Assembly (NCBI GenBank): GCA_030141605.1
Contig: JAQGDQ010000462.1
Span: forward strand, 62,001 to 126,000
Reading direction: 5' to 3'
Length of the DNA: 64,000 nt
Source of the DNA: Tubiluchus corallicola
Lineage: Eukaryota > Animalia > Priapulida
In this document: positions 4,165-30,500 of the stretch, in pieces
Numbering within the stretch: position 1 is the first letter of the stretch
Layout: the number at the start of each line of letters is the position of its first letter
The notes under the pieces: model-generated
Databases searched by the model: none
Seen by the model: the letters and a program-made list of their open reading frames with translations, nothing else
Told to the model about the DNA's origin: nothing
Made by a program: the position numbers and the translations under genes

Positions 4165-7100
4165 CTGGAAAATATTGTGCAAAACTAAATCATAGTTTTT
4201 ACTGCTAGTAAAACAGATCAAGCACGCATACATAGGAATGAACTCAACTTGAAAATAGTTTTCAACAACAACAAACAATGGCGAAAACATTATTTTGACA
4301 ATCATAAGAAGAACAGCCTAATTTTAATTTTGCTGCAATGGTGGCATTGGTAATGGCGGCAGTTATCATTGTCGTGATGTGTGTCATGAACTGATTCACG
4401 AGTTTGCTTGATGAACTTTATAAACTTTAGGAACATTACAACTTCAGAGTAAGTTAGACTACAGTGAATCATTTTCTAAACTAAATGGTTTCTGATATTC
4501 ATTGCCCGAGGTTAACCAGCTTTAACTGATTTGTCCTTTTTGAAACTAGTTTGAATCTAGTTGTCACAACATAGTGTACAGGAAAGATGGTCAATAATAA
4601 AGTGTCTGTGCCACAAAATGAATTTGGTTTATGTAGCTACATGTATTAACAAAAGCCTCTTTTACAATGTGGGAAGAGGATGTAAGTGCCAGAACACAGA
4701 AAATTATAGACAGAAACCTAAATAGCTTTGCTCGGTACTGTTACGTTATGACGTCATGTTCACGTGACTCCGTAGCTTCATTCTCTTCTGTTCTTGCTGT
4801 TATGTGTTAACATTAATTTTATCTTGTCTCTCATTGAAACAAGGATTTAGAAGTTTATACGAAGTACACACATCAGACTACCTAGTTTGTTACCTGCATT
4901 CATACAAATCGGAAAAGTACACCTCAGTTGGAAGAGTAAAATTTTTGCATACACTTCCAAACTTAATAAATTGCTTACTCTTCAGGCTCCTTTGGACGAC
5001 CAACAGTAGGTAAAAGAACAGTCTCCTCGTCACCTTTTGACATCCGAAATATCTGAATGATCAATATATTTATGGGTAGAACTATTAAACTGCTTTCAAT
5101 ACCTAAAAACAAAATAAAATGATTCTGCAGATTCACGAATTAACTTTGCAGAATGAAATGATGAGAAAGGCATATTGTCTTTTTCTCTTTCTCCTCCCCC
5201 CTTCTCTCTCTCTCTCTCTCTCTCTCTCGCACATAATTTCCATATAATAGTCTGTTTTGTGCCACAACTCATCTGCAAACAATAGTAAATAGTTACTATC
5301 CTTGTTTTATAAACCTAAACATCATTTCGTCACACATTTATGCTCTATCAATTTTCTTAAAGGGGAAGAACAAACTATTTTAAAGGACTTCCCAAGGAAC
5401 TTTCCACATAAATTTACATTATTTTGCACTATAGCCTGCTCACCTGATAGAAGTTCTGACTATTCATGCCACTTGGTAAAACGACACTGCATTACCATCC
5501 CAGTGTGCATCAGTGGTTCATCAAAACACACATTATTGATGTTGATGTAATTTAAAAGCACGTTACAAATTCTCTGATTATTTTTTCTAATTTAGCGCAA
5601 TATCTAAACTTGATTCAAATGACTTGCTACAACTAACAGTTTTCATTGGAATTCAAATTTACAAGTTTTACATAGTGTTACTGGCAAGCTCTGTATGCAT
5701 TAAGACAGCATGTAAGTGATTCAAAATTTCAAGCTTTACGAAGAGTGATTTCTTGTGATTAAAGGAAAACCGGACGATTGTGTAAACATTAATTAAGAGT
5801 AAACAATGCTCTAAAAGATTGAAATCTACAATAGCTTTTTTTAAATCAAAGCTTAGATTAAATAATAATTAGCTCGGATAAACAAATTTTCTTAAACTTT
5901 CAAAGCTAAGCCTGGCTCAGTGAATCTGCTAAGATTGGCAATGGCGCCTTTTTGTCACATTCCATGGCCGACAACTATCAAGAACTGCAGTGCTAGTTTC
6001 AGATGGTATATGACATAGAGCCCATTTTCGTGATATCATGCGTTCAAGCAGCACTGTAACACTTACGCAAACATGCTTGATGCTCAAATAACATTGTTTT
6101 TTGGCATGAGCAGTAGATATGTTCCGTTGGCTTTAATTAACTTTCAACACAAGATATTCATTATAAGAAAAATTGCTAACTTTTATAGGCCAAACAATTT
6201 ACATATTGGACAGGAAATTAAAATGAGGTTGAGTATAATCAACTGTGCAGTTTTCGTTTAATTGTGAATACAGATCTCTGTTGTTTAAAAATGAAAACGC
6301 AACTCACCGATAATGAGCGACTGCCATGATATCCTCATGCTTCCTATGACAAGCTGCTCTTTCGGATCTATTGGAATACCATAAAACATGATGTTTGCTA
6401 ACATGCCCGTCAACAGCAGCGATAAAACACAAGTTAGTCTCTAGCAAGAAAGAAAAATTTCCAGACTTTATAATTTAGTTAACAAAGTTAGTTAACAAAA
6501 ACTGCAATTTAAAAAACATGTTGCAAACTTAACTGTGATATCTATTGCGGTTAACAAACTAATTTTCTTTATTAGTTAAAGAGAACCATCAATAGCAATC
6601 TCGTCGACATTAACTCGGGTAACTTCCATCTCTTTCAACTGTGTCCTCAAAGTCACAAATTCGAATCGATTTTAAACTGTGTTGTGGTAGACCACATGTC
6701 TACCCATACTTCTGCCTGTATGACTTGTGCAAATGACATTTTATACGATACCACAATTCACTTATAATTATTATTAATGTTATTGTTACTATATTGTTAC
6801 ATTTTGCTATTTAGACGAGAATATACGATCCGTAGCGATGACACGTTACTTGTAAAAAGTAATAAGCAATGTTATAAAAAGACAAATATTTTCATTGAAA
6901 ACCAATGGTCATTCAGAGGAACGGTCAATACAACAGGATCATTTCACTGACCTGGACTCTAGTGAAGTTACTTTGTGCTGGCCTACAGAATATGCTTGCC
7001 CATAAGTGACTATCTCTGAATCCTACAGCAGCTTTTGATGCAAATACATGTGTAAACCCCTAAACCAGAAAAATATATTAATAATTAAAAATAATTAAGG

Positions 7101-10100
7101 CTTTAGTTATCCATGGACAGTGTTACTTATTGTTTTATTGACCTGCCAACCATTTGATTTAAAAAAATAGCATGAAATGTAAACTGATTAAAAAATGTTT
7201 GCTTTTTTGGGTATCAAAATCTAATTCTAAAAACATTAGGGGAAGAAATAACTACAAATCAAGCTTTCTTGCAGTTATTGTAGTCGCTTTGCTTTATAAT
7301 GTAAATAACGAAGTTATACTTTTATAATATTCTTTTATAATGCAGAAAAAGTTCAATAACAAAACTGTATTATTGTAGTATTGTATTAATAAAACCCCTT
7401 CAAGGCTGTAAGATTTTGTTGTATTTTGCATCAGGTCACGAAAAACTGTACTTATTAAGCAATGATTACATTATATTTGATTATTTTTGTACGTTTCTGC
7501 TGCTCAAGCAAAAGGCTTTCATACAAAATTGTATATTAAGGACATTTATTTGCCTTAAACAAATTATAAAAAAATTGGCGAAAAAATTGAGAAACGCATT
7601 TCAGTAACTGCAACATTTGCACTGTAACAATGTACAGTATCACTTTTGTGAAATCGACCAATTCAAATAATTTAAACTATCCAGACACAACACACTGGTA
7701 AACTTTGACCTGTGTTCTATTTTGCTTCAAGGAGAAATTCTGGTTAAAAGATGAAACAACCTTAACCTGACTTTGCTTTTTCATTGAACTCTGTTGAGCA
7801 GTCATTTCTTGTGATGAATAAAATAGTGTGTACGATCACGCAAATGTACAAAAAACTAAATTAACTAACAAGTTGGAGTGTTTGAAGAAACGATCATAAG
7901 AAATGATGTAACCCCAAAGCTAATTAAGATGCAGATACATACAAAGTAGTTTAGAATAAATCTGCCATAACTTGGCTACATTAAGAATAAATCTGCCATA
8001 ACATAGTTACATTAAGATTAAAACTGCCATAACTTGGCTACATTAAGAATAAATCTGCCATAACATAGTTACACTACTTATGATAAAATGCATTGCAAAG
8101 TAGCAGTGGACTGGCCAATGTGATCAACACAGACAAAATTAGTGGTAAATAAATCTGAACGCTTACCACAAGCTTCTGCATTTTTGCTGGTCCCAGTGTA
8201 CAATAAATTGTTTGTGGACCTTGATGCACTGCCAACCAATTATTATACAGAAAACACCAAACTTGATTTGTTTGTAAATCTCTTACAACAATCTGATTAA
8301 GATACCTAAAAAGAGAAACTTTTACATATAGCGTGCAGTAGTAACGAAATGTAATAAATGTAGTAACTTGTGCAGCCTCAATAATTAGTTTAGGATAACA
8401 AATAACTCTGTAATATGTAACTATAGTTTGGGACAACAAATAACTCTGTAATATGTAACTATAGTTTAGGACAACAAATAACTCTGTAATATGTAACTAT
8501 AGTTTAGGATAACAAATAACTCTGTAATATGTAACTATAGTTTAGGACAACAAATAACTCTGTAATATGTAACTATAGTTTAGGACAACAAATAACTCTG
8601 TAATATGTAACTATAGTTTAGGATAACAAATAACTCTGTAATATGTAACTATAGTTTAGGATAACAAATAACTCTGTAATATGTAACTATAGTTTGGGAC
8701 AACAAATAACTCTGTAATATGTAACTATAGTTTAGGACAACAAATAACTCTGTAATATGTAACTATAGTTTAGGACAACAAATAACTCTGTAATATGTAA
8801 CTATAGTTTAGGATAACAAATAACTCTGTAATATGTAACTATAGTTTGGGACAACAAATAACTCTGTAATATGTAACTATAGTTTAGGATAACAAATAAC
8901 TCTGTAATATGTAACTATAGTTTAGGACAACAAATAACTCTGTAATATGTAACTATAGTTTAGGATAACAAATAACTCTGTAATATGTAACTATAGTTTG
9001 GGACAACAAATAACTCTGTAATATGTAACTATAGTTTGGGACAACAAATAACTCTGTAATATGTAACTATAGTTTGGGACAACAAATAACTCTGTAATAT
9101 GTAACTATAGTTTAGGACAACAAATAACTCTGTAATATGTAACTATAGTTTGGGACAACAAATAACTCTGTAATATGTAACTATAGTTTAGGACAACAAA
9201 TAACTCTGTAATATGTAACTATAGTTTGGGACAACAAATAACTCTGTAATATGTAACTATAGTTTGGGACAACAAATAACTCTGTAATATGTAACTAGAT
9301 GAGCCAATGAAACTGTTTGAAAATGAAAAGACATTAGAAATCTTGGACAGCACTATCTTGCAGCAAAATGCTCCGATAACTAAAATATAGTTAAATAAGT
9401 GAATTTTTTAGGTAATTTATAATTGGCCCGATTTTTAGTTACATAATCTGTGAATAACTAAAGCCGGTGAGAAATTGCTAATCAATTAAAATAACATGTG
9501 CATGTACTGTGCCACCAATTCTGCATAATCATGCATTAATAAGATGAAGTAAAACTATTTTTATTACCATTTTGGACTTTCTCCTGTGTTATCATGCCAC
9601 AATTCGATGCTTGAAAGTTCACCAAGTGAGTTCTCAGTTGTCATCACAAACCAATCTTCCGACCCAGCTTCTAATATTGGTCTGTTTTTATCACACAGTT
9701 TAGTAGGTAAACTGTATCCACTTAAACCTGAATGTGTGAACAAATGGGTTGCACAATGCAGAAGTATTGAATACCAATATGTAAAATTGTAACCAATTTA
9801 GAAAATTAGAAATCAAGATTCCTTGTGCAAGACACTTTTATACCATCAAGGTACTCCTACAATTAAAACTGCATTAATATACAATTCATGCTGTATGCAT
9901 AGTCTTCTTTATGTAGCCTTCTAGCAGCATAGTCATGGCTTTTGAGAAACTTCCATTTTGTAAAATGAACAAATGGTACAGAACTCACAATGTGCGTACA
10001 TAAAATAAAAAACGAGAGGAAGAGGCAGAGAATGCAAGCAGGAGGACAGTAAGGATAACGGGCAGGTAAAGGGATAATAAAGGTTTTATATCCTAGACTC

Positions 10101-13100
10101 ACACTGTACATTGGTAATCTCTTATAATCTCCTATAATCTCTCATATCACAACACATGCCTATCATTGATTAGCGTAAGGAATATCAGCAGGTATCTTGT
10201 TGGTCACACGACTGCTCATCTGTGCATATTTATTTTCACCTGGGCAAGCTGGCTGGTTTGTCGACATGAACGGGGTTCGCTATGTTAGTAACGATAAAAG
10301 TAGTTTTAACGATGCAGATCATTTGTGTAATTGCTAAATGCTTACCTTCTATAGCAATGGTAACATTAGATGTTGTCCCAGCACCTTTTCTCATTCCAGT
10401 GTAAACGATGATAAGATAAGCATATTTATCAAAAGGATCATTGTCTTCTAAAATTGTAACACCAACCTGTCAACAATTCCGAGGTAACACTTTCTGTAGT
10501 TTGTTATAATAAGTTTTCTGCATTTTGTTAAAATAAGTCAGTGTTATACACTTATGTGTAATAGTGATCACAAACATTGGAACGGCGAGAGAACCTACTG
10601 CAAAATTAAAAGTTTATATTGCCTCAAAGTGAAGTTTTGACCTAGGAGAACGTTTTAGCACAGACAACGTTGCAAGAAAGCCAGCAATATAAAGAGTTAA
10701 TTCCATAGAGAATTGCATAAACTTGTTTCACATTGCTGAAGCAATAGCTACTTTGAATCAAATGCAGTTGCAGTTCAGAGAACAGTTTAAGCTTAAAACA
10801 AACATCTAAACTTGTGAAAACACTTTTAAGTTTATACAACATCACACAAGAAAAAGGTACAACAAATTATATGATGGCTGGAACACCCGATTGATTGTTA
10901 TTAAAGTGAAGACCAAGCCTGCTGGCACAACGATTAAAATGGTTATCGGTTAAAAAAAGCAACACACCATTCACTGCCTTCAAATGTGTAATAAGTTTTT
11001 GCAAAAAAATAAGATAGCTAATTTTGCGATATTTTTGCATAAATATTAAGTAAGCTGCAGAAATTTGAATTAGTTTAAGAAGAGAACTCTTACGGAAAGC
11101 CACAACGTTTTCAAAACGTCACTCAGTCCACCAGTTACCAACAGTTAAACTCATGATTTTTAAGTAAATGGCAGCTACCACTGCACCTAAAAATTTCAAC
11201 ACAGCAGTGGAATTAATTAACTTGATGCTTTATAAACAGTTTTGCAAAATTCTTTGTTATATTTTTATAAGTTTAATTGATAAAATAATAATAAACACTA
11301 ATAAAATACTAATAATAAAAAACAATAAAATAAACACTAAATGCTAAATGAGTTAGGTAATTAATTACATTCAGTGTTGCAGAAGACAGGGCAATAGAAA
11401 TATACTTATTTCGTATATTGGATTTTACAAAGCCAAGTTATATGTTTGCAAAACCGAGTTATACAAATTTAACGTTATTTATAGGTCATAATGATATCAT
11501 AATGCATAAGTCCGAGTTTTTAAAGAAAGTTATAATTGTAGTTCAACGCTTTCAACTTGTTGATCACCAGAGTGTTTTTCATAGTTTTTCATCCTTGTTT
11601 AGCACTTAAAGTTGTAGCATAATCACTTACTAAATGTCTTAATTCTTAACTTCATTTCATCGTTTCCGCATATTTCAGTATATCACGATATCTGTATTAC
11701 CAGGTCTCATTTGAAAACATCCTATATTATATTCAAGTTGAACAAACTCACACACTAATGCATCAACAATGTTAAGGCTCAAATCCAGGCTTCAAACCTG
11801 GAAAAAGCGGAAATGAAATTACAAACCCTTAAAGCATCTCTCCGGTCATTCCTCCTGGCATACAGAAGCATTATCAGGTAAAGCAACCAGATTAATAACA
11901 CAAACAGGACAACTACTGGGTTATCAAAAAACTCCAAGAAGAGAATGATGTCTTCGAATGGATGAACATAATTCGGCTTTACGACATACTTCCCAGAAAA
12001 TGCGGTCATGTGATAACACTTGCAATGAATCTGTGTCATTGTTGCTCTTGGACCCACCTGAACAGATTACAAACAATCAACATTAAAACACAATCAAGCA
12101 AAAACAATTAAGACTTGATACTGCATTATGATGTTATAGAATTCAGGTCAATTGTTTCCAAAAAATGTACAGAGACTTTTAGTAACGTGTTTTATGTGCA
12201 GTCTTGCAGCAGCACCTGCTCCTCTCAAATACAATGGCAACTGTTACAGTAAAATTGTAATAATAGGTCCAGAACCTCACTTGCTTTCAATGCTTATCCT
12301 CTAAGAAGAAACTCACTACTGAAGGACGTGTCTTGGGCACTTCGCCATGCTAGATGCTCTCATACAGGTAAAAAGCCAGAATCAGTAGATATAGATAAAA
12401 TTTTATCAATAGATAAAAGTTACTATCGAACCCAAGCAATCTTGACGAAAGAGCGTAGACTAGATATTGCTTAGCTTTGTTACATTCAGCAATGTAAATG
12501 TGAAATGTATGCTGACAGAAAGTTAACATAGCAAAAATTAAACGACCACATGTGATAACTAATTTGAAGGTATGAAAGACTTTCTGCATTTCTGCTGGAA
12601 AAACAGCAGGTAAACGAATCGCTTCGTTAAGTCATGTTTCAGTAACAAGAACAATTAAAGGCATCACTGGCACATTGTGATGTATATAATGGTCAAAACA
12701 AGCAACTTTGTTTTTAATATGCCTGATATTGATTAACAAACAAAAAAATTCTGGTGAAGAATCCATTATTTTCGCAATACCAGGATTGATATTATTAGTA
12801 ACTTTGTTTGAAAAAGAAAAATTATTACTGTATGAAAAATACACGGTATGAAATTTTCTGAAACTGTATATTACTGTATGAAACTATATATTACTGTATG
12901 AAACTGTATATTACTGTATGAAACTATATATTACTGTATGAAACTATATATTATTGTATGAAACTGTATATTACTGTATGAAACTGTATATTACTGTATG
13001 AAACTATATATTACTGTATGAAACTGTATATTACTGTATGAAACTATATATTACTGTATGAAACTATATATTACTGTATGAAACTATATATTATTGTATG

Positions 13101-16100
13101 AAACTGTATATTACTGTATGAAACTGTATATTACTGTATGAAACTATATATTACTGTATGAAACTGTATATTACTGTATGAAACTGTATATTACTGTATT
13201 AAAGCATGTTTGGAGTTTTAGAGTTTAGCACTTGCAGACTAAGCTAAACTACATCTAAACATTCAACCACTTGCATGCACAAATAAAAACAAAAGTTCCA
13301 TTGTTATCGAGAACCACAGATATCGAATCATATTTCATAATCCAAACCTCACATCCAGCTTGGGACCACTCCTCTAGCATTTCATCCCAGTACAAACATT
13401 GGGAGGAGTAAAAGCTCAGTGAAAAGTTGTATCTGGTTGTTTGTGGAGGAGCTGAAACATTGAAATTGAATTTATTTTGAAATTATAAGCAACCGTTTTG
13501 AACTGTAATTCATTCGTAACTATGCTAATAATTATGCTCATTAAGGCATGAAAAAATAATACTAGGAAAAATCGACTTCGAAATACTTTATACCTGGTGG
13601 TGTATTATTAGCTGCAAGAAAACACGGAATTTTCTGCAAATTAGTGGACGGATCTCCCTCAAGCCACGTCATGCACGGACATGCATATTGCAGATAACTC
13701 ACTCGAATTACAACCTAAACATAAATTTATCATCGTAGGTGAAACAATTCATCATATAGTAGAGAGGTTTTCGTTTGTGGCCACTAAATTATAAAACTAA
13801 TTACCCTTTAAAACAATTTGCTTATTCATACACCAAGACAGATTGCCTATGGGATCTTGTAGAGAAAACTGATGGCATATCAAACTAAAACATGAACACC
13901 AAATTTAATCTGAGAAAACATGCCAAAATGAACGCAGGTAAAAAGGTCTCAGGTAAAAATGCCACAGCTAAAAAGTCACTCACAAAACTGACAGGACAGT
14001 CACATAAAAAATTACAGGAAAGAAGCCACAGTTAAAAACGTCACAGCTAAAAGGTCACATAAAAGGTTACAGGAAAAACAAGTAATGCTAACAATAACCC
14101 AAAGTATTATAAACAAAGCATATTTTTTTCAGATACATGTAATGCCATCATATATAAAATACTGTTGTCAATATGTACAATTCACATATCGCGAGTTAGC
14201 AACTGATTTAATTTTTTCAGTACTTAAATTGTTTATGGTACATAAATAAATTGTGAGTGACCTTAACATTTGATTGATTGTTTGATTGACCGTCTTTCGT
14301 TCTAAGACAAAATTTTGGTTTGTTTCTGCGAATTTGTTACCGACCTAAACGAGTTTACAATGTGGTGTAATTATTGCATTTCCAAGGAAAACAATTATTC
14401 ATTATCAATCCAAATTTATCACTCACGTTTTGAAGGCAGCATATTGCAAGGTACTTATTGAAAATTAGACTGATTATCTTCAGAAAATGCACCTGCAATA
14501 ACCAGTCTAAACAAATAGACATGATCAACAAACACACCTGCAATAACCATTCTGAACTAATCGACATGATCAACAAACGCACCTGCAATAACCAGGCTGA
14601 ACAAATCGACATGATCAACAAACGCACCTGCAATAACCAGTCTGAACAAATCGACATGATCAACAAACACACCTGCAATAACCATTCTGAACTAATCGAC
14701 ATGATCAACAAACGCACCTGCAATAACCAGGCTGAACAAATCGACATGATCAACAAACACACATGCAATAACCAGTCTGAACAAATCGACATGATCAACA
14801 AACACACATGCAATAACCAGTCTGAACTAATCGACATGATCAACAAACACACCTGCAATAACCAGTCTGAACAAATACACATGATCAACAAACACACCTG
14901 CAATAACCATTCTGAACTAATCGACATGATCAACAAACGCACCTGCAATAACCAGGCTGAACAAATCGACATGATCAACAAACGCACCTGCAATAACCAG
15001 TCTGAACAAATCGACATGATCAACAAACACACCTGCAATAACCATTCTGAACTAATCGACATGATCAACAAACGCACCTGCAATAACCAGGCTGAACAAA
15101 TCGACATGATCAACAAACACACATGCAATAACCAGTCTGAACAAATCGACATGATCAACAAACACACCTGCAATAACCATTCTGAACAAATCGACATGAT
15201 CAACAAACACACATGCAATAACCAGTCTGAACTAATCGACATGATCCACAAACACACATGCAATAACCAGTCTGAACAAATCGACATGATCAACAAACAC
15301 ACCTGCAATAACCAGTCTGAACAAATCGACATGATCAACAAATGCACCTGCAATAACCAGTCTGAACTAATACACATGATCAACAAACATACCTGCAATA
15401 ACCATTCTGAACAATCGACATGATCAACAAACGCACCTGCAATAACCAGTCTGAACAATCGACATGATCAACAAACGCACCTGCAATAACCAGGCTGAAC
15501 AAATCGACATGATCCACAAACACACCTGCAATAACCAGTCTGAACAAATTCACATGATCAACAAACACACATGCAATAACCAGTCTGAACAAATCGACAT
15601 GATCAACAAACACACATGCAATAACCAGTCTGAACAAATCGACATGATCAACAAACACACCTGCAATAACCAGTCTGAACAAATTCACATGATCAACAAA
15701 CGCACCTGCAATAACGAGGCTGAACAAATCGACATGATCAACAAACGCACCTGCAATAACCAGTCTGAACAACTCGACATAATCAACAAACGCACCTGCA
15801 ATAATCAGGCTGAACAAATAGACATGATCAACAAACGCACCTGCAATAACCAGTCTGAACTAATACACATGATCAACAAATGCACCTGCAATAACCAGTC
15901 TGAACAACTCGACATGATCAACAAACGCACCTGCAATAATCAGGCTGAACAAATAGACATGATCAACAAACGCACCTGCAATAATCAGGCTGAACAAATA
16001 GACATGATCAACAAACGCACCTGCAATAACCAGGCTGAACAAATCGACATGATCAACAAACGCACCTGCAATAACCAGTCTGAACTAATAGACATGATCA

Positions 16101-19100
16101 ACAAACGCACCTGCAATAACCAGTCTGAACTAATAGACATGATCAACAAACGCACCTGCAATAACCAGTCTGAACAAATAGACATGATCAACAAACGCAC
16201 CTGCAATAATCAGGCTGAACAAATAGACATGATCAACAAACGCACCTGCAATAATCAGGCTGAACAAATAGACATGATCAACAAACGCACCTGCAATAAC
16301 CAGTCTGAACAAATACACATGATCAACAAACGCACCTGCAATAACCAGTCTGAACTAATAGACATGATCAACAAACGCACCTGCAATAACGAGGCTGAAC
16401 AAATCGACATGATCACAAACGCACCTGCAATAACCAGTCTAAACAGTTTGACCTACCTTCTCTAATAGCCAGGCAGGTCCAAAGTATCGATTGTCGTGCC
16501 AAACACTTATGAAATTTAATGTTCCAACAAACACTGTTGATACGTTGAAATCATCAGTTCTGAAAGAGATTGATAGGAGTTCTCTAATCTTTAAAGTTCA
16601 ACTCTATTGAGGACAAAATTAGGTTTATAAATTAGGTTTATAATGTTGCTCTAGCCTTTATATGGTGTAGAAAGACGTTCTTATGACCATTCAAATTTAC
16701 TATTTTTGAAAATTGGATAACAACCATAAATGATTCAGTATCAAGAGTTATCAACAGGTGTGTATACAGTTGTACCTGCCTATTTTCAAATTATGTCAGA
16801 TATTACAATAATATTAAGAACTCCTTACTGTGCACGTCTAAAACTTCCAAAAGAGCTGCCCAAGGTAATTTTATCAGAGTCTTTATGCTTTCCATGCAGC
16901 TGTACTGACACACTTGCTGCTGTACCTGCATATTCCACGTCTGCAGTCAGTATTGAGATCTGATACATCACATTCTCTGCAACTAAACAATTATTTTGAA
17001 TTAATGCTTTAATGATAAGCCAGGGTAGAATGGTGCGTGTGTTCCTGGTTTGATACTATTTATAAAACAAAAATTTAAATCTGAATTCTAGTGAAACTAC
17101 AGTCAAGCCTCTTTATACCCACTTTGGAACTGCAAAAAATGTTGGCATTAAGCGAGTTTGGTGTTATATCACGGTGCATTAAAACATACATGTCATGCAA
17201 ATGCATGTTTGCGAATAAAATTGGCTATATTCGAGCTTGGCATTATAAAGGGGAGAGTGCGTTATAATGGGGTTTCATTTAGTTATTTGTTTTTTATTAA
17301 AAGTACAGAATATTAACACTAAATGTTTACTAACAAATCTAAATTTCACATTTCATTTTCCATGTTATGTAATATAAAATATCTGCATAATGTTCTGCAC
17401 TCAAAGAGGTTCCCAGTGTATCCTGGAATGTTTTAGTTTGCTCGCCAATACCTGAGGTAATGTTTTCTTCTGGTTCGGTAATGTTTGTAGGCTCGTCTAG
17501 CCAGGTGATATTGGCACATATTTTCTCATAGGCTATGGTTTCCATCCTGCAAAATTCTTTGATAGGTGATTTACAGGACAGCAGTGTCTGGTCACAATGT
17601 GACGTACAATCTTCAACAAGCGCTGAGTCGCAGTTGGGGTGACATTGGTAACACGAACCATTGCATCTGAAGAAATTCTTTTCACAGTCATTTGTGTAGT
17701 TTTTACTGCAATCATGGTAAAAACGTCTACAGATTTCACGGTCAGCTTCAATAGACAATGTTTCCTCACAAGCAGCTTCGGTGTTTCTAATACAATCAGC
17801 TGGAATTTCACAAGAGTTATTAAGCGCCACAAAGCAATTTTCATACATTTTTTGGCAGCGGTTTAAACAAGCATTTTTAGATAATGTACAGTCAGATCGG
17901 CACATTTCGTGGTAGTTGTTACATGTGTCCAGCACAGATCCATAACAAACATTGTATGCATTGTGACAGTTAGTTGATGCTTTCTTACAATATTTTACCC
18001 AGTCTGTATAACAAGGTTCTTTTTCTAGGCACTTATCAACACTGCACAATAAGATTTTATTGTCTGTGCAAATCTGCGAATTCAAACAATTCTTTGTAGC
18101 ATTTTCCGCACATTCTGTAAATTCACCCTTGCATTTCAAAGATGCCTTATAACACGAGGGGGTGTAGAATGAGTCAAATAACAAGCCAACATAATAATCA
18201 GCAGTAATATTATCATCATTATAAAAACTTAGGACATTGTCTGGAGTCTTGCTGGTGTATGCATCAGTTGGAATAACTGGTATGTTATACACGGTATTTG
18301 AGTCTTCCCTAAAATCTCCAATTGTTGGCTTAACATTCTTTTTGAACACCACCTGAAATGAAGCATATAAGCTGTATATTAATTTTCTCTATACATATTA
18401 TCAAGCTGCAAATCCCTTAGCACTTTACAAAAATAATTTTTACCAAATCCCTTCTTTAATGACAGAGAGAAATCAGTAAAAGGTAACTATATTGCACTTA
18501 TTTATCAACTCACAAAATGTAAAACAAGGCTTTAGCAACTCACAGAATGTAAAACAATGTTTTAGTAACTCAAACAATGCAAAACAATGCTTTAGCAACT
18601 TACAGAATGTTAACTGATGCTTTAACAACACACAGAATGTAAAACAATGTTTTAGCAACTCAAACAATGCAAAACAATGCTTTAGCAACTTACAGAATGT
18701 AAACTGATGCTTTAACAACACACAGAATGTAAAACAATGTTTTAGCAACTCAAACAATGCAAAACAATGCTTAAGTAATTCACAGATAGTAAAACCATGC
18801 TTAACTAACTCACAGAATGTAAAAGGTATTTAGATAAAAAAATTGAAGCATCAATCGGAATGTTTGTTGATTCAAATTTTGTGAGCTACTGAAGTTCGGC
18901 GGTTCAATACCATTATCACCATTCCTAATGACATCATTTACCTTAAGCAACACTTCTACTGGTAAATGTTGAAATATCAGTAAAGCATTACTATAAGCAT
19001 CAACTGTGAAAGAATGTACTGTGATGTGTTTGTTGGAGACATTGCCAGTCGTCTGCAAGATGTACGAATCAACGGTGACAACATTTATTCCTAGAAAAAA

Positions 19101-22100
19101 ATAAAACTGCTCAACTTACTAGCATCTACAGAATCAGTAACATGCATTACTTGAGGTGATGATAACCGTTAAGAAGGTCAACATTGTTGCTGTTTATAAA
19201 AATAACAAAATCTTTGTTATTATCATCATAGTGGCCATGATGGACGCTACAGAATCAGCTGTAAACAAACATGCATACACATAATACGAAAGGCTAAAAT
19301 ACTCATAACCAAAACGCAAAATTTTATGTCTCAGTCACATTTCAGAATTTTGTACACTCATATCTCGGTTTGCCGGACAAAATCGGGGCGACGTCTAAGC
19401 TTCCCAAATGTCCATGTTTCCGATACTAAAACAATTATTATAGTATTCCTTGCAATAAAGTAATGGTAATTTAGAAGCAATTGCCTTATTGTGTCAAAAA
19501 CGTCTAGTACAGGCTACTCCTATGCAAAAGTATATAAAACTGTCGACAATTGACTCAAATTACACCGCATAACTGACTCTCTACTCTTTTTGCACTTTTA
19601 AGTACAGTCGTTACACGCTTGGTTACACTGATGTATTGATGTAAACAAAGTGACGTCAGGTCAAATAGCAGTCAGCTCGCGAAACAAAGGACTGTGTCCG
19701 TAGTAGTATACTGGTCTTTTTAACAGACCAGACACTGTCCAAATTTTCCACTCTCCGTAAAAGCGATGTCTCGCAAACCGAGATATGAGTGTAAATTGAT
19801 TTACGTTTGATGTACCTGCAACTTTCAGAAAAAATTCCAGCGGTTTTTCAAACTGCCTTTCCACAAATGAAAGATTTTTATGTTCACTGATAGAGATGCT
19901 AGCTATAGGTGTGTCAACCAGAACTGCAGACTCGTTCCAGGCAAATGGATTGTCCTCCATGTAATACAACTGCCAGAAATGTTATTAAGTCAAAAATAAA
20001 GAATTATCATTGCATTAAATTGAGCCTATGAAGTGAAAGAATATCCAGAAGCATTTGAGTTTTAGCAGCTTGCATTGGCACTAAATTGTAAATTAATTAG
20101 CAATTTGTGTAATTAACAACAATGGAGTAACTCGGAGATTATCGTTAATGGCAAGAATAGATACAATTAAAAGATTATTTATTATTTTACAATTATAAAC
20201 ACCTACAGCAGTTAAAAACTTATAGTTACAACACTACAACTTTATTAAAACTTTGAATTTACATAATTAAAAATCATGTCAAAACGTTACGACAATGCTA
20301 CTGCTGTCATCATCAGTGGTAAATTTTTACAAACATACAACCAGTTTATATATATAAGCAGGGCCTAGCATGGCCTACGGTATGCTAAATAATTAATTGG
20401 GGCATAGTGTTGGATACTGTATCTTCTGCCTATCATTTCTTTTATTTTGTGATAGATTTTAATAAATTACTTAATTACCTCTACACCAAGAGAATGCTGT
20501 TCAGTTGATAGCACATCAGACGGGGGCATTTTAAAATATCCAATGTCTTTCATGCTTTTCTGGGCACCTATAAGAAGTAAAAAATACAGTTACTAATTGC
20601 AAAATGTGCTAAGATTCAAAAATAATACAGCAAAAAGCTGAAAATTGCTAACTGAGTCATACTGAATGTAGCTAATACTTGTAAAACTACCTCCAAGTTC
20701 AGTGACTCTCAGTCGTTCCAGTGAAACCGTCATTAAATCTGTTGTAAACGTAGTTGCCTCTTCATGTACTACCTTGTGTTTAATGATGCTACTGGAAATA
20801 TCATCAACTAATTTCAGTGATTTCAGTGACACATCTCTGGCCTGCAACAAATTAACATGTGCACCTGTAAAAGTCTCCCTTTTTATTGGAGATTGCAGAT
20901 CATTGTGAACAACAGAAAGAACAGCAAACACATCCAAAAATTACCATTACAGGCTTTTACAAATTTATGGTTTTTGTAATTCACCTGGCAGTTATCTCTT
21001 CATCACCTAAACTAAATGAGAACCACTCTTTCTATATCACTATGATAATGCAATGGAATCAGAGCTTAACTGAAGCTATCATTTACCACTGTTGTTGAAA
21101 ATTGAACGTCATTATCAATAGCCAAGGCACGGAATAAATGCACTTATGTTCAATATTGCGCGGACATCCTACATCCACCTACATCCAGCTGTTTTTACTG
21201 AAGCAAAATTACTTGCAGAATACAATGGAATGACGTCACAACAATTGCTTCGCCTCAGTAAAAATCTTCTAAAATGAAATCTCCAATCAACTAGCGCCTG
21301 CTCCTCCTGGTTCAGGCGACCCGAAAAGAGTCCCTCATCTTCATACAGCTCTGTTCCTCCTCTTTACAAGGAGCTATAAATCTCTGTCAAAGAACCCCAT
21401 CAGATGCAGCTAGATCATTTCTCCTACATGGTGTTTAATCAACACACTGAAACCTACTAAAGAGTAAAATCAACTCCTCAGTTCATGCACTACCTGGTAC
21501 TGAATTCCTAAACTTTAACCAGTGAAGATTCGCTCTAACATTTTCAAACTATCAACAAATTAAATAAACTATTATTTTGCCATCATCATCAGCACTAATA
21601 TAAGCTCTGATTTATGACACGTCTATATGAAACCTGGTCACCTTGAATGATTAGTGAAGTGGTATATCTAATTTACTGTGATTATTATGTGACCCTTCGA
21701 TTACTGTTACGTCACTGCATGAAACCTCGTCTAGTAGGTGAAGAGTAACTGTTAGTTACCTTTGTATCAATAAACTTTTATTTACTACATTGACTTTGAG
21801 TTTAATTCTCATATCAATTTGAACACAAGTGTAATGACTTCTTTTTACTGAACAGACTATCAAACCATTACCAGCAGCACTCTCGGCACATTTAAGTTCT
21901 CTAGAAATAAGACGTATAACTTTTCTAGTTATAGCCTCTTAATCTGCACTACACGAGGGTGCAAATCTTTGAAAAAACCGTCAAAAAGGGCCATTTTGGA
22001 GGTTTTTTCGCCGCCCCTCATTTCCACCCAGAGGACCAGATTCAAAAAATGAAACCCCAATGGCAAATCAGTGGGTCCGGAAAATTTATTTGACGTACAG

Positions 22101-25100
22101 ATCGCTGAAAATAGTGCTGTCATCAGAGCCGTAGCCTCGTCGGTTACATATATACCACCGGAATTAATATACATGATTATTATTATACTTTGCACATGAT
22201 CCCATATTAAAAATTAATGACATTCAATATCATTGTTTTGGCTTACTAAATTTAATTCGCGTTAACTACAACACATATAATTTACTAAAGCTTTCACAAA
22301 TGTCTAAAGCTATATTACGTACTTGCATGAAGATCTCCTGATTTACAATGTCACTGGACAGACCTGCATCACCCTTGACCACTCTTTTTTTTCGCTTATC
22401 ATTGTTATCAAACTGATCTTTAGAGGCACGAATAATGCTGCCAAAGATGCTTGATATTCCACTTAAAGCAGACCTAGAAAACAAATCTGTTTGCACAAAG
22501 TGAATGGTCCAGCGATTGAGGATGACCGTGGAAAGGTCAAAGGTTAATTGCACCAGACAACACGTCTGTGTACACTTGACAACTCACTTCAGGCCATGCT
22601 ATTGTAATAGTAACAGTTTTAACAGCTAGCTAGAACCTTAGTTCATTTTTTCTTGTTTAACCCTGTTACAAAATCAGTCTACGCACTGACTGATGCATAT
22701 TTACATAAAGTCCACATAAAACAACTAAATTACTGAACTGATGCTGCACACGGTTTTGCCATACCCACATATCAGGTGAATGGTTGTAGTTAAGATGCGT
22801 TGCTGTGCTATATTTAACCTTTAACCTACAGCAACTACACATGCACACAACAGTGAAAAGGCTCATTGAACAATGCAAATATTCTACTAATAGCAACTAG
22901 CAACGAACGGCAGACACCACTGGCTGTAAAGATACACACTCAGGCACTGGTACAGGTACTAGGACAAATTTCAAACAAACGTATAATTAGTGATCAAAAG
23001 ACTGCAAACTTTTCAAGTCTGAGAAAAAAAACAGAGAAGATAAAATGGAGAGTGAACTGCATGCCAAACACTTGTAGTGAACAACTAGATATAATGTCCA
23101 TTTCTCGTGCATCATGGATAGTAACAAACTTGTGCAATGGATTTCTACTAATGTTACTACTTATTCTATAATAAAATTAACTATTTTTTATACTTTTCTA
23201 ATTCGTAACTAATACTGTTTTTAGTAGTCTTGAGAGCAGATTGTACAAAACTTTGCTCTAGCACTCCACAACCAACTCTGCTATCATATCAGCAAAACAC
23301 GATTATTAACACTAATTTTTCTGTGAAATTAATAATTTGCACACAGACTTCTATAATACGTCAAACTAAAACAAATTTGTATTTTCTAGGATGTAATGAT
23401 ACCGAAATTGTAGCTTTTGTTGGAAAATTTGTGTTCGACTGCATTGACTGTAGAAATATATGACTTAAAGTACTAATAATTGTATCTTTTTACACAAAAT
23501 AATATATTTATAATTACTTATTACCATAAGAAAAGCCTATTATCTATCAACAACAGCAATTGCTTATAGCCAGACTTAAGTTAAATTATTACGTCATCAA
23601 AACCTATTTTAAATTTTGTAACATGTTGAAGTCATTTATTGTAATATATTAATTTGTATTTTTTGTTATGGTCACCTTATCTCAGATGTTTTTATGTTTG
23701 CAGTGGTGAGTTGTCATGTTTTTTGTATGCCAATGAATCTCTAAGTCTCTAACAAAACTTAGTAGAAATCATACAACTGACTGAGCTGGTTGACCAGCTA
23801 GCAAATTGACTAAATAATTACGCATAAATAAACAAATAAATAACAGTAGTTGATTAATAAAAATTTTACTCTGCAAAATATTCCGAATCAGACTGATCAG
23901 CTTGCTGTGTTATCATATTATTCATAAATTCTCCAACTTCATACAGCTTCTCCATTGCAGCCATCTGAAATTTAACAAAAGACATTAATATCTCAAGTAA
24001 CACATAATTTGGTTGATTAAATGTTTATCTAGTTCTAAAATCTGTGAAATGTAATTTAATGCAGTCTGTCAACATATCTGACATCCATACAGAAAGAACA
24101 GAGCATCAACAAAATTATGTGAAAATAGACAAATACTAGACTGGAGTTCATGTGCGATTCTTTCTCGATTGAGAGTGAAAAAATAATTTGAGAAACAATA
24201 GTGAAAAAAATCTCTTTTTAAACTAAAGCTGTGATGAAAAAGAAACAAGTGCTTAATGACAAAATTACCGACTCAAAATACTTGTTTTGGCGAGAAAGTG
24301 AAAAGAACAGTACATCTGAGCACAAAGGCATGAGTAAAAATGTGTGAAATTTTAAGGCCAAGTAAGAAAAAGAGCAAATTCTTGGAATAATTAAAAGAAT
24401 CCAGGCGGACTAGGACATATTAATCAAGCCAAGGGGTCAAATTAATCACAAATTAGCATAACGCTCATGTCACAGAGGTCAGCCTACTCCTTACACGACA
24501 ATCAAAAATTAGCAAGGTGTTGTGGTTTATGACAGCTGGTTCGGGGATGAACACTTTGTAACATTGTTAGCTCAGCACTAGCCCAGCAAACTTGGCAGAT
24601 CTATTCAAGCAGATCATTGCTAATAAAGATTATACATGAAAAGCTTAAAAATTGTTTCCTGTGTAGAAAACAGGAACTGTCTAATAAAACCTTGAGTTGA
24701 ATAAGAACAATATGACTGTTTATGTTTAAAGTAAAAGTCATGTGCCTCATTCGATCCATAATCAACCACTTGAAAAAGGTGGATTGTCTAAAGACATAAA
24801 ATTCGTATACAGTAGGAAAAGAGGATGTTATGCTGGCATTAAACAATGTGATTTAGTAGAAATAAAAAATACTGCGCTATACATTCACCATGTCCTCTGA
24901 AATGATACAAGGCATAGATCTATTAATTAATAACATTAAAGTGATGCAATATACGATTTAATTAACAACACTGTGACGAGGAACTAGATCAATTAATCGA
25001 AAACACTGAGACGATGAACCGGATCAATTAATCGACAACACTGAGACAAGGAACTGAATCTATTAATCATTAATATATTATTGACAATGAGACGTATATG

Positions 25101-27529
25101 TAATAAATAATTAATGACAACGAAACAAGGAGCTGCAATAAATAATCAATGACAATGCGACAAGGAGCTGCATTAAATAATTAATGACAATGAGACAAGG
25201 AGCTGCATCAAATATTCAATGACAATGAGACAATGAACTGCAACAAATAATCGATGACAATGCGACAAGGAGCTGCATTAAATAATTAATGACAATGAGA
25301 CAAGGAGCTGCATCAAATAATCAATGACAATGAGACAAGGAGCTGCATCAAATAATCAATGACAAGGAGACAAGGAGCTGCATCAAATAATCAATGACAC
25401 CGGACAAGGAGCTGCATTGAGTAATCAATGACAATGAGACAAGGAGCTGCATCAAATAAACCATGACAATGAGACAAGGAGCTGCATCAAATAATCAATG
25501 ACAATGCGACAAGGAGCTGCATTGAGTAATCAATGACAATGAGACAAGGAGCTGCATCAAATAAACCATGACAATGAGACAAGGAGCTGCATCAAATAAT
25601 CAATGACAATGCGACAAGGAGCTGCATTGAGTAATCAATGACAATGAGACAAGGAGCAGTATGAAATAATCAATGACCCTTACCTTCGTTGTGATAGGAA
25701 CGTCATTATCAGTGGCAAAGATTTCACTGAGCATCTTTGACAACACTTTGGCAGCAAATATATCAGAGATTGAAATTTTTGTTGTCGCACTCACCAGAGC
25801 TGTCCTGATCTGAAAACAGAGAAAACCGGCTTCGTATTGCCTGTACTATTGTCTTGTTAAAGATGCGCAAAACAGTTTAGTTTTGACTATTCCATGATAG
25901 GCAGTGCCGCAATTTTTAACCTTATGCTACTTAAAACTATCTAGTCTTACATTATTTTGACTTTCCAAAGAAATGAAAATTGTCTCGATAGTCGTAAGCT
26001 TATGCACCAGTTGTACAAATATGATAACTATATCTGTACATCAAAATATCACTTAAAAACCAGTAGTTCTTAGTAAAATTTACTAAGACCTGCTAATATA
26101 TTTAAATAAATATTTGTTTAAAAATAACATGTCAAAATATTTCAATAGCAAGTAACGCACAACAATTGTCAAAATTATCAGTACTTAAATGTCAGTCTTA
26201 AACTTAATAGTTTCATTACCTCATTTTTTCTGTTTTCAATTTCAGTCTTCTGTGCTATTTGGCTGTCATCATTTATGTCAATTTCAGATGATATGTTGAT
26301 TGCATTTAGCAAAGCTGAAGCAACAAACACTATCTGTGTTGCACCTAAAACATTTCAACTTTAACTTGTTTACTATCTTCATCAAGAAACGTTGTTTCGG
26401 TTTATTGCTGTACACTGATTACAGAATAATTTGCTGAGCGCAATACGTGTACCAGCTGAAGCAACTGTGTGCCAAAGCCTGACCTGTACAGTTCACAATG
26501 AGCAGTTAAACCAGTATTGTAATGAAATTGTAAATGAACGTCTTAGCGCTACAAAACGATGTATACCTTTCACTTAGGACATTAAACAAAGTCATATCAT
26601 TACGGGTTGGTATGACTATGTCAAACCAGCCAAGGATAAGGCAATCTTTTGGCATGACCTTTGAGTCTCATGTTATAGTTCCAGAAATGGTGTGATAGCA
26701 GATATAATGAGACGTACTCAGGCTTCTTATTACCATCTTCTTCCTATTACTTATTACACTATCAAAAACATAGAGAGTTAATGGCTGACCATATTGCTAA
26801 CAATAGATGCCACAGAAAATTTAACTTCACCAGATAAGATTTGTCAAAAATTTGCTGATGAAAATGATCACTTATATAATACTGTAAGCTATGATGTCAC
26901 TTGTATGAATAACATTGTAAGTACCATCAATGGTAAACTCATAAATAATGGCATCAATATGACTCAGTATCGTTCAGTATCGATGATGTACATAGCGCAT
27001 CTAAACGTATTAAGATAAATAAAAATGACGGTAGGAATGGTTTTTACCCTGACTGTATCCGTAATGGACATGATTTGCTATGTGTTCACTAGGATTTATT
27101 ATTCAATGCATGGACAAAACCATGGTAATTGTCCTGAACATTTTCTGCTTGTAAATATTTTACAATTCCAAAAGACAAGCAAGGCGACTTATCTAGTATT
27201 ACTAATTATAGAGGTATATCTCCTCTCACTTAAATAAAATTTTAGACTGGCTTATTTTGTGTAAATATTGTGATCACTTGTATACCTCAGATTTGCAGTT
27301 CGGGTTTAAGCCCAATATGATCACAATAATGTGTACATCCGGGCTAAAATAAACTCTTGCTTATTACATGACCAATAATAGTTGTGTTTACATTGTTTTT
27401 AGGTGCTTCAAAGGCTTTCGACAAAGTAAACTTTTGCAAACTATTCAACATTATTTTCAATAGAAATATTCTGTCCATTATCTTACGATTGTTTTATCTC
27501 TCCCCTTTATATTTTTTGCGATTATGTCA

Positions 27530-27586
<57 letters not shown>

Positions 27587-30500
27587 CCTCCCTCTCTGGT
27601 GTTAAAATATAAGAAATAAAGGTTAACCAACATTGCCAAATTTGATCATGTCAGAAGGAAAAAGCAACCTTAATGCATCATAATACGACATGCATGCCAA
27701 TCAAATTCTTCTTTAACACTTGGCAAATTTCCTACACAACAACATACCATGGTTTTCTCCTCTGGTAAGATAACTTTCCAGTGGACTTGGTTCACCAAGA
27801 GTGCTATTTACGAGTGTTAAATTTTCAAGCTCGTTTAAGATACTTATTGCAGATTCAAAGTCGTCTATTTCATCTTTGTTATCAAAATTATAAACCTACA
27901 AACATAGAAAGCAGGTAATCAAATTAAAAGCATTTGGGGATGGGCAGAAAAGGATAATTTGAAAGTGGATATTTGTTGTCAACTTTCCTATGGAAGATAC
28001 ACATTCATATTAGTTAACCCTTTCAGTCCCAAATTTTAAAAAGAAAAAAAAATTGATTTAGTATATTTGTTCAGTATGTCCATCTTGTTTATGCATAATA
28101 ATTATTTTTTTCTACCTGTGCCCGCGTGCTAAATATAGCCTGTATCCCACGGGATACATTGGGATTCAATGGAAGCATAAAATGCTTCATTTTGCAACTG
28201 CTAATATTTTTTAAAGTATTTAAGACATTTACTATGCATGCTATGCTGATCTGTACAAAGTCGTCTCTAAAGTACTGTACCTTGCGCAGTTTTTTATGCT
28301 ATGTAGATTTTCTAGTTTGCCATTTTATCACCATTTTTAGTCTATTGTTATTGGCTTAAATCAAAATAACTATTAACAGATCAAATAACTGTTAAATTTT
28401 ATTAATTTTAAAGACAGAAAATATTTTCGTATCCCACGGGATACAACGGGTATGAAAGGGTTAATTAAAAAAAGTGAGCAAAGCAGGATATTTGTAATAA
28501 GTACAATAACAGATAATCAATATAATTTTAAGTTTCTACTGAATGAGCAATTGTAACATAAGAAAGCAAACGGGGTTTTATCCTCTCAAAATGTTAAACT
28601 CAGAAAACTTCCATGTTTGTACGTATATATCATGTATTAGACGCTATACATAAGATTTTATGTTGACCTGTCAACAACAAAAACTCAACCGAACTACAAC
28701 GTCAAATTCTAATGTTCAGCCAATGTAAATTTCTGATGTTTAATTGATGTTCAATTCACGTCACATATGAGACACTGCAGAAACGTTAGGGAAAAGACAT
28801 CTGTGGATCAATGTTGTGCTGCGCTCTGACATTCTAAAAACTTTCACACTCAACCAAAACCTAATAACTAGCAATGTCGAAACATCAGCATCTACTGTTA
28901 GCTAAATGCCCTCCCAAACCAAAAATGAGACAGCAGGGATAACTGTAAGTTTAATTTGTTTCTGTATCAGCAGACATAAATTCAAAATCTTGCTTGTGAT
29001 TTCTATCTGCTTGTATGTTAAAGTTCTATGCTTTCCTTCCAAATGACAAGAGATGACATACTCACAGTGACATTAAATGTAGCCCATGCAGCTGACATGT
29101 ACGCATCTGATACAGACATTAATATTTGTCCGATGTAGTTATTCTCTGCTAGACCTGGAGACAGAATGGTTGGTGGAAGCTTTGGAGCAAAGCCGCGATA
29201 TAATAAAATGCCTGTAAAGCAAAGTTCATGCTTACTTACAGTATCACAGAAAGTAAACATACTATATTAATTTCCGTGGTATAAGCTAAATACACACAAA
29301 GATATATATATATGTCACGGATTCCCGTGATTGAGTTCTACTCTGCTATTATTATTATTATTATTATTCCAAAGCTATAAATTCCTTCGTCACCTTTGTA
29401 CAGGCGACCATTTAACGTTTGCTTTTCCTACAAGCAGACGTCAAATGGTCCTCCGCCTAATTCGTTAGGCTAATTTTTTTCCCCTTTCTTCAATAGTTTT
29501 TTATGGTTATGTGCTGATGTGTATCTATAATTAGGTTTACTGCTGTTATAAGAAGTAACTATGTAATTGCGACAAATCTTGTGAATTGAATAAATTTTAT
29601 TTGGGTGGCCAGTCCCCTTTAATCCAATGGTTATGCGGTTTTTGTTAAGAGTCAAAATTAGTCTAAATTATATGTTTCAGTAACAGCAAACCATTCTAAT
29701 TATCAACTCGTAGATTTAAGCGTTATGCACCTTTTTCTATAAAAAATATACTAGACTATATACACTTCCACGTATTTGTTTAATTAAGAACCAGGCCGAT
29801 GTCTCTCCCACAAAACTTCTGAAAAAACGAGCATTTTTCACAATATATAAATCGGCTGTAAAATGCCCATTTTTGGAGGTTTTTTGTCCGCTGTTCTTCA
29901 TGGTAGGCCCGATTCGAAAAATAAACCTCCAATGGGGCGACATTAGATTGAGACCTTTCGTTTGATATATAGATTGCCCAGAATGGCGCCGTCGTCGGAG
30001 ATGTAGCCTCAAATCTTATATATATGTCATTTGAGAAAATGAGGTGAAATGGTAGGGTGTGTGGGGTGTTGGTGGAGTGGAGTGAGTAGTGTGGTGGGTG
30101 TGGTTCAGTGTGTTCTGGGTGGTGATGTGTGGTATTGATGATGTGGTGTGTGTAGTGTTGGTGGAGTGGTGTGGGTGGTAGGGTGTGATGTGTGGGTGGC
30201 GTGGTGTGGTGCATTGCGGTGGTATGGTGTCGTGCAGTGTGGTGTGGTGAGGTGGAGTGGTATGGTGTGGGTGGTGTGGTGTGGCTTGTGTTGATTTATG
30301 CGCAAAATTCTTCCTGCGGGGTTTGGCTAATCAATTATGATTGTGATTGCCTGATTTGTTTTAAAACCATTGCATTTTGTTTTGCCAATTATTACTCATT
30401 GCGGGTAATGAGTCGGCAGCACCATGCTATGTGACACTGTAACAGTTGATTCTCATGCACCATTGTAACAGTTGATTCTCATGCACCATTGTAACAGTTG

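Follow-up and report, generated by a model that had tools for sequence, protein, structure and literature searches.

An additional PLAT domain lies upstream of the GPS in a polycystin-1/REJ-family receptor gene of the priapulid Tubiluchus corallicola. The gene is on the minus strand of the stretch analyzed here (the window; 64,000 nucleotides of contig JAQGDQ010000462.1, positions 62,001 to 126,000, with position 1 below being its first letter), and it also has the usual PLAT after the first transmembrane segment (TM1). We call the two domains the outer and the inner PLAT. The outer PLAT is the last third of an insert of ~360 residues, the remainder of which is a segment with 32 cysteines that is probably helical. 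As a feature of the sequence the second PLAT upstream of the GPS is real, while its splicing is predicted.

Three exons encode the outer PLAT

A preliminary description of this DNA had proposed three minus-strand exons (16976-16829, 16559-16457 and 13714-13594) and placed them N-terminal of the GPS and TM1, with the usual PLAT following TM1. Both proposals hold. The exons have AG/GT ends and the frame runs through them from 17452 to 13451 without a stop; the domain order is borne out by Pfam, tblastn and an in-frame gene model. The exon phases are 1-2, 2-0 and 0-1, making the trio phase 1-1 overall, and removal of any one or two of the three (all six combinations) brings in 25-35 stops.

The domain assignment also stands up to profile searches. 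The Pfam PLAT hidden Markov model matches exon 1 (profile positions 1-44 of 117, E 1.5e-4, 22.9 bits against a cut-off of 23) and, colinearly, exon 2 (positions 49-82, E 0.028), leaving exon 3 unmatched. A further profile was made from three PKD1-family PLATs of outside origin and no others; against it the spliced domain of 119 residues scores 37.7 bits over profile positions 3-89, and the best of 2,000 shuffles 8.4. When 1,913 six-frame segments of the window are ranked by PLAT score, the top five are the three exons of the inner PLAT followed by outer exons 2 and 1. In that ranking exon 1 attains E 0.14 only. The first matches of exon 1 in the ESM Atlas are PLAT clusters (0.95), at a recognition value of 2102, under the threshold of 2300, and the best PDB match of exon 2 is the PLAT of human polycystin-1, a weak one (E 0.045).

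The exons resemble the rest of the gene in other respects. Their splice-site sums are 13.9, 16.5 and 12.6, those of the other exons being 5.0-21.6 (leave-one-out, n=31, a set without the first exon and three EGF exons that are near-duplicates). Their GC content is 0.38-0.44, as against 0.26-0.34 in six neighboring intron stretches.

Exon 3 is the weakest of the three as judged from sequence. If the gene uses exons 1 and 2, it also needs a phase 0-1 exon to restore the frame, and among 232 frame-compatible candidates exon 3 ranks second by splice score and first when splice score and profile gain are combined. Its CxxWL, in what would be the final two strands of the eight-stranded sandwich, aligns with the references in a multiple alignment, and it contributes just 5.5 bits. 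The intron between exons 2 and 3 holds a satellite (14485-16445; 45 bp, 43.6 copies, 93% match), one minus-strand frame of which reads CxxWL by chance and so mimics the PLAT motif. Satellite-derived alternatives to exon 3 score higher on the profile and were rejected for their poorer splice sites.

Some results weigh against the outer PLAT as a working domain. By itself exon 3 has no Pfam or PDB match, and by profile score alone it ranks 12th of 233 entries, behind mainly satellite-derived frames. The trio can be skipped in frame, as the preliminary description had already pointed out: 17452 joins 13451 in phase when all three exons are dropped. The domain is known from one genome, without an orthologue. 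An alternative is a captured gene fragment that lies in an intron and is normally skipped (17452 to 13451), leaving a receptor with one PLAT and a Cys-rich insert. Skipping would keep the frame, the upstream donor and downstream acceptor both being of phase 1, and a 2-kb satellite parts exons 2 and 3, the latter with weak profile support. However, 372 nucleotides over three exons have neither stop nor frameshift, the PLAT core residues are conserved, the splice scores are ordinary, the GC content is exon-like, and the phases fit the host intron on both sides. In addition, no further piece of a donor gene was found among the 1,913 six-frame segments scanned for PLAT similarity. We regard constitutive skipping as very unlikely, the least probable of the alternatives considered here, and on the sequence evidence expect with good confidence that the exons are spliced into at least some transcripts. 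(The preferred reading and its rivals are partly overlapping, and our estimates for them do not add up to one.)

Gene model and domain order

The in-frame model comprises one large minus-strand gene of 38 exons (59727 to 4107; 2,077 residues, no stops) with AG/GT ends at every internal junction. The domain order is signal peptide, two Cys-containing exons, five EGF-like exons, REJ, GAIN/GPS, TM1, PLAT, TM2 and TM3. The gene likely extends beyond the window edge after TM3 and the start of the next loop. Its parts are as follows.

59667..59727, minus strand: probable first coding exon, signal-peptide-like (ATG, hydrophobic stretch, phase-1 GT donor in frame)
58000-57659 and 55962-55639, minus strand: two Cys-containing phase 1-1 exons (in-frame model)
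36646..52407, minus strand: five EGF-like phase 1-1 exons, starting at 52407, 51178, 47321, 38901 and 36759 (Pfam EGF, two exons tested; translations)
29066..35760, minus strand: REJ module, eight exons (Pfam REJ colinear on six open reading frame pieces; tblastn with the Ptychodera reference)
18942..27895, minus strand: nine exons spanning the helical region of GAIN subdomain A and the beginning of subdomain B (in-frame model; tblastn and alignments to the three references)
18161..18352, minus strand: 5' part of a 901-nucleotide exon, predicted jelly-roll strands up to the insert (reference alignment with the insert omitted; low identity)
17452..18160, minus strand: Cys-rich insert of ~236 residues with 32 Cys, then an acidic linker with predicted glycosylation (Cys count and spacing; low-confidence model)
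16829..16976, minus strand: outer PLAT exon 1, phase 1-2 (Pfam PLAT 1-44, E 1.5e-4; ESM Atlas)
16457..16559, minus strand: outer PLAT exon 2, phase 2-0 (Pfam PLAT 49-82, E 0.028; PDB polycystin-1 PLAT, E 0.045)
13594..13714, minus strand: outer PLAT exon 3, phase 0-1, putative final strands including CxxWL, then a proline-rich linker (frame need; splice and profile rank)
13348..13451, minus strand: last jelly-roll strand and first GPS half (Pfam GPS 2-21; reference alignment)
11827..12057, minus strand: second GPS half with H-M-T at 12012-12004, stalk and TM1 (Pfam GPS 28-43; tblastn with P0002, E 2e-13; hydropathy peak)
8167..10466, minus strand: normal cytoplasmic PLAT, exons 10466-10346, 9727-9568 and 8305-8167 (Pfam PLAT; 137 bits on the reference profile)
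4107..7059, minus strand: helix after the PLAT, TM2, TM3 and the beginning of the following loop (in-frame model; tblastn with P0002 and P0003)

The references are 'sperm receptor for egg jelly-like' from Ptychodera flava (P0001) and two PKD1L2 proteins of fish (P0002, P0003). By blastp the window protein matches P0002 at E 4e-93 and P0001 at E 6e-48. Pfam REJ matches six open reading frame pieces in order (best E 6e-10), and Pfam GPS is spread over two exons, each part under the curated cut-off. The GPS retains four Cys, both Trp and an H-x-T (here H-M-T), aligned to the references, and a cytoplasmic PLAT lies between TM1 and TM2, as the polycystin-1 family requires. Judged by the family features that can be checked within the window, that is, through TM3, the gene is a polycystin-1/REJ-family receptor; the channel-like C-terminal half and TOP, which belong to the 11-TM layout of the family, would lie beyond the window. 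Apart from the signal peptide, hydropathy peaks above 1.5 are limited to residues 1767, 1976 and 2014; since no hydrophobic segment intervenes between the signal peptide and TM1, the whole stretch between them, the outer PLAT included, would be extracellular.

Some choices in the model concern other exons. A start codon at 58053 was rejected because the frame closes, and the exon at 59727 was used instead. The open reading frame 32991-32758 was rejected as a REJ exon, as the frame does not need it and Pfam gives no match. Exons 58000-57659 and 55962-55639, whose G-C-Y motif we take to be WSC-like, have no WSC match in Pfam; they are possibly divergent WSC domains.

The cysteine-rich part of the insert

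The 901-nucleotide exon upstream of the trio begins with GAIN-region strands and continues with the ~236 residues that contain the 32 Cys. The cysteine spacing peaks at lags 7, 8, 11, 15, 19, 22 and 26, lags 1, 2, 9, 10, 17 and 24 being empty; this is an 11/3 periodicity, with a helical moment of up to 0.92 at 98 degrees. This pattern points to cysteines on one face of long helices, in agreement with a single-sequence model that is helical and too poor to interpret (pLDDT, the predicted local distance difference test, 37.6). The segment is thus predicted to consist of disulfide-stapled helices.

The Cys-rich exon, ~300 residues long, is an orphan in every collection searched. A search of 1.84 billion representatives brought up no relative at E<=0.001, and there was none in a word-based protein search (490 candidates), in the ESM Atlas, or in Pfam, NCBIfam or PDB sequences; of 72 pattern matches in metagenome contigs none was confirmed. 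Foldseek with the low-confidence model found nothing at E<=0.001. A match to BMP at E 0.21 was judged to be chance, and a GDNF-receptor-like domain, considered from the Cys pattern, was dropped for want of a Pfam match.

The exon ends at the 17452 donor. If that donor is unused, the frame gains 37 codons and then stops, and there is an AATAAA at 17298 on the minus strand. A secreted form ending after the Cys-rich segment could be made in this way; AATAAA is common in the AT-rich DNA here.

The insertion site in the GAIN region

The preliminary description had placed the additional PLAT inside the GAIN domain and regarded it simply as a second extracellular PLAT. Alignments agree that the domain is flanked by GAIN elements, and the extracellular position stands. 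The placement needs revision in that the site is predicted to be a jelly-roll loop nested in subdomain B rather than the GAIN core, and the ~360-residue insert that ends with the PLAT had been overlooked.

The extent of the insert was delimited by alignment. The summed alignment score to two references is best (239-252) when model residues from ~424-451 to 820 are omitted, and is -177.5 uncut. In a multiple alignment without residues 461-820, the gap falls on a short reference loop. The upstream edge is uncertain by ~30 residues because two window fragments that cover the jelly-roll failed to align to it in one alignment, a failure that also counts against the proposed site.

The GAIN region of one fish PKD1L2 (P0002) was folded with a seven-row alignment. 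In the model, the place of the insert is taken by a loop of 11 residues that links strand 218-227 to strand 239-246. Reference residues 137-248 match jelly-rolls, namely, tripeptidyl peptidase II (Z 8.4, root-mean-square deviation 3.0, 98 aligned), a carbohydrate-binding module (Z 8.4, 3.3, 94 aligned) and a GOLD domain (Z 8.3, 2.7, 90 aligned), the Z values being near the level that a common arrangement alone can give. In P0002 itself, residues ~479-590 form this predicted GOLD/CBM/pre-peptidase-like jelly-roll just before the GPS strands, in a low-confidence model. A profile of the family's GAIN region matches adhesion-GPCR GAIN domains (best E 6e-07), mainly in the GPS strands. The paper that defined the GAIN domain states that PKD GAINs share the secondary-structure pattern of adhesion GPCRs, and the parts of it consulted do not mention a jelly-roll subdomain (PMC3321182).

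The structural evidence has its weak side. The reference model is poor, with a mean pLDDT of 45 and block means of 56-74 over 151-230, then 51 and 42. Foldseek agrees in kind and returns nothing at E<=0.001. Neither fold search of the reference model recovers a GAIN structure, and the GAIN core is not confidently folded. The models give moderate support to a nested layout, in which GAIN subdomain B contains the jelly-roll, and the last hairpin of the jelly-roll carries the Cys-rich segment and the PLAT. The jelly-roll may be general to PKD1L-type GAIN regions, and may itself be a ligand-binding candidate.

The insertion site bears on whether the receptor is cleaved. Some 360 residues are inserted about a dozen residues ahead of the first GPS strand, and autoproteolysis needs the whole GAIN domain, according to the portion of the report available (PMC3321182). 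The insert might thus distort the GAIN, making the receptor an uncleaved adhesion protein with the outer PLAT covalently tied to the membrane part. Met precedes the Thr, a position at which the usual form of the motif, HL-T/S, has Leu in the text consulted (PMC9672506). On the other hand, the GPS retains its Cys and the catalytic His and Thr, the insert enters a loop that is predicted to be on the surface of a separate subdomain, and the motif is also given as H-X-S/T in part of another source (PMC13062082). The same source notes that H-X-S/T is not sufficient for cleavage, so cleavage is not assured. Loss of cleavage seems to us improbable, and we hold it reasonably probable that GPS cleavage is kept despite the insert.

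Origin of the outer PLAT

The two PLATs of the receptor are unlikely to be recent duplicates of each other, which is in line with the preliminary description. They are 25% identical, and their introns differ in position: in the outer PLAT these are at alignment columns 53 (phase 2) and 89 (phase 0), and in the inner PLAT at 29 (phase 1) and 84 (phase 2). A recent internal duplication of the inner PLAT was rejected on both grounds. Compared with three outside PKD1-family PLATs, the outer domain is 23-28% and the inner domain 44-48% identical. The first loop of the outer PLAT lacks the T-G-x-R-x-G-A-x-T-T-S of the PKD1 type, and its identity to four family PLATs is 23-28%, below the 44% or more of that type.

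The simplest account from the sequence is that a phase 1-1 module, of the same class as the EGF exons of the gene, was captured from another gene, and we think it likely. The preliminary description had named a LOXHD1-like gene as a possible donor, and the motifs of the first and last hairpins may resemble those of LOXHD1. A tree of five PLATs was uninformative: it puts the outer PLAT on a very long branch and contains no supported fork. Searches with outer exon 1 in metagenome contigs gave 595 pattern matches and with the PLAT alignment in prokaryote genomes five matches, none of either confirmed.

The gene has also gained exons of another kind. The EGF-like exons 51178-51065, 47321-47208, 38901-38788 and 36759-36646, all on the minus strand, are near-identical, 114 nucleotides long, and each lies within a duplicated intron block. 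In sequence, the four are the product of recent duplication of a unit in tandem, which expanded the ectodomain.

Ligand loops and a proposed mechanism

The loops of the outer PLAT give mixed indications of its ligand. The first loop keeps one Asp and one Glu, and the second is aromatic and basic, with no acidic residue ahead of the conserved Asp. In lipoxygenase-type PLATs the Asp of the AGTD motif is a Ca2+ ligand; in the outer PLAT this Asp is replaced by Ala. An N-glycosylation sequon lies within the domain, and its last exon has three Cys.

From the parts of the literature available, both lipids and proteins are ligands of PLAT domains (PMC8051682). For the polycystin-1 PLAT they include phosphatidylserine, PI4P and beta-arrestin (PMC9672506). 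Membrane binding by lipoxygenases is driven mainly by aromatic and hydrophobic side chains (PMC10889196). What counsels caution is that PLAT loop sequence and Ca2+ use vary widely (PMC7436259; for loops also PMC10889196), so that the ligand cannot be read from the sequence.

We propose that the insert gives the shed half of the receptor an extra handle for ligand binding, and that the outer PLAT binds an external membrane surface, largely without Ca2+; the chances of this are about even. Separately, we see the balance between lipid and protein as the ligand as even too. The insert would replace a short surface loop between the last two jelly-roll strands, and since that loop is predicted to be on the surface, the insert would not prevent the GAIN from folding and cutting itself at H-M/T, after which the outer PLAT would belong to the N-terminal fragment. 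Both ends of the insert have to come back to neighboring strands, for which reason the Cys-rich helices would run out and back as a hairpin, with the PLAT near the base of the GAIN rather than at a stalk tip. Through its aromatic/basic loop the PLAT would bind an opposing cell, a vesicle or a lipoprotein. A pull on this contact would act on the GAIN and favor stalk exposure and signaling by the membrane fragment. The tethered-agonist model, as given in the part of the paper seen, is a precedent for force acting on the GAIN and the stalk (PMC9672506).

Alternatively, the outer PLAT could be expressed and extracellular and yet be protein-binding or purely structural, and no lipid binder. The PLATs of secreted lipases bind partner proteins. 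The Ala in AGTD, the sequon inside the domain and the three Cys in the last exon would fit this alternative, as would the protein contacts already mentioned (PMC8051682; beta-arrestin, PMC9672506; both seen in part). In contrast, the aromatic/basic second loop would suit anionic lipid contact, and the Asp and Glu of the first loop are kept. A role without lipid is somewhat unlikely in our estimate.

A fuller account would combine these elements: a lineage-specific receptor with PLATs on both membrane faces, whose captured PLAT and unmatched helical hairpin make a head built on the GAIN; lipid would pull on it and free the stalk, the cassette would be switched by splicing, and a jelly-roll loop would tolerate the whole. 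As a package this is a tentative proposal, and a rather doubtful one.

Mobile elements in the window

An LTR-retrotransposon-like element (LTR, long terminal repeat; 39363-42626, minus strand) lies in an intron. Its 847-codon frame matches gag, SCAN, zinc knuckle, protease and integrase, and a frame upstream of that one has a weak match to SAP. Two elements resemble long interspersed nuclear elements: one (1-3278, plus strand) has a reverse transcriptase match (E 2.7e-30), and the other (~48640-50130, minus strand) is broken over several frames.

Rarity and significance of the two-PLAT layout

Each of the homologues P0001-P0003 has one PLAT, after the GPS. A query with a four-exon PLAT alignment, partly mis-stacked, gave three proteins at E<=10, one of them below 0.001, and a query with the TM1 exon gave no family member (nine candidates). 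A PLAT before the GPS was not found described in the full-text literature searched, which covers few subscription papers and includes no broad survey of protein architectures. The sources that bear on this point were available in part, and in what they say the family PLAT is intracellular or follows the GPS. It is always intracellular in ten sea-urchin and five human proteins (PMC1934368), and LOV-1 has one intracellular PLAT (PMC9829181). Tables of teleost proteins list one PLAT per protein, after REJ and, where listed, after the GPS; the introduction of that paper puts PLAT among 'N-terminal' domains, while its tables place it after REJ/GPS (PMC5318412). A coral REJ-domain skeletal protein reads WSC-PKD-REJ-GPS-PLAT (PMC4890752).

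Concerning novelty only, the two-PLAT layout might be widespread in invertebrate PKD1-like proteins and be merely undescribed or outside the searches. The protein search was word-based, covered proteins of up to 2,000 residues, and found three family members among 297 candidates. Against this are the single PLAT stretch in all three fetched homologues, the adjacent Cys-rich exon without a relative among the 1.84 billion representatives, and the intracellular PLAT of the sea-urchin and human proteins (PMC1934368). We consider it unlikely that the layout is widespread. With a homologue sample of three proteins, the case for rarity leans mainly on the orphan status of the Cys-rich exon.

The outer PLAT would break the published generalization, as it appears in the part of that paper seen, that the family PLAT is always intracellular (PMC1934368). 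The natural ligands of the polycystin-1 family and the action of the ectodomain on the GAIN and stalk are poorly understood, and a lipid- or protein-binding domain borne by the GAIN would offer a simple test of coupling between ligand and cleavage site. In human PKD1L proteins the loop may take up a tag or sensor with cleavage left intact. The significance is limited in that the parts are known and the family readily shuffles extracellular domains.

Comparison with known systems

The receptor shares with the polycystin-1/REJ family (SpREJ, P0001-P0003 and the coral protein) the order of REJ, GAIN/GPS, TM1, cytoplasmic PLAT and TM2-3, and P0001 likewise has EGF-type repeats. It differs from P0001-P0003 in that a ~360-residue insert stands where the references have a loop of ~11 residues, and in that the references have one PLAT. 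As to the GAIN domains of adhesion GPCRs (ADGRG6, ADGRF1, ADGRD1, ADGRL3), the GPS strands match and the match is mainly confined there; unlike these, the PKD1L2 reference has a predicted jelly-roll before the GPS, and it is in that subdomain that the insert would lie.

Extracellular PLATs as such are not new. Secreted PLATs, as in pancreatic and lipoprotein lipases and in plant PLAT proteins, show that the fold works outside the cell and binds lipids or partners. In these soluble proteins the PLAT is terminal, whereas here it would be an insert in the autoproteolytic domain of a receptor. LOXHD1, in the portion of the source available, has 15 PLAT repeats (PMC8051682), in contrast to the single domain in a receptor ectodomain. 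All six PDB matches of outer exon 1 are to the coral lipoxygenases 11R-LOX (3vf1) and 8R-LOX (3dy5/2fnq), and are weak (E 0.18-0.9); the T-x-D...AGT-x-A pattern of the first hairpin is shared with exon 1. Unlike the lipoxygenases, the outer PLAT has Ala for the Asp of AGTD, is accompanied by no catalytic domain and is predicted to be extracellular, and its exon 2 is closer to polycystin-1.

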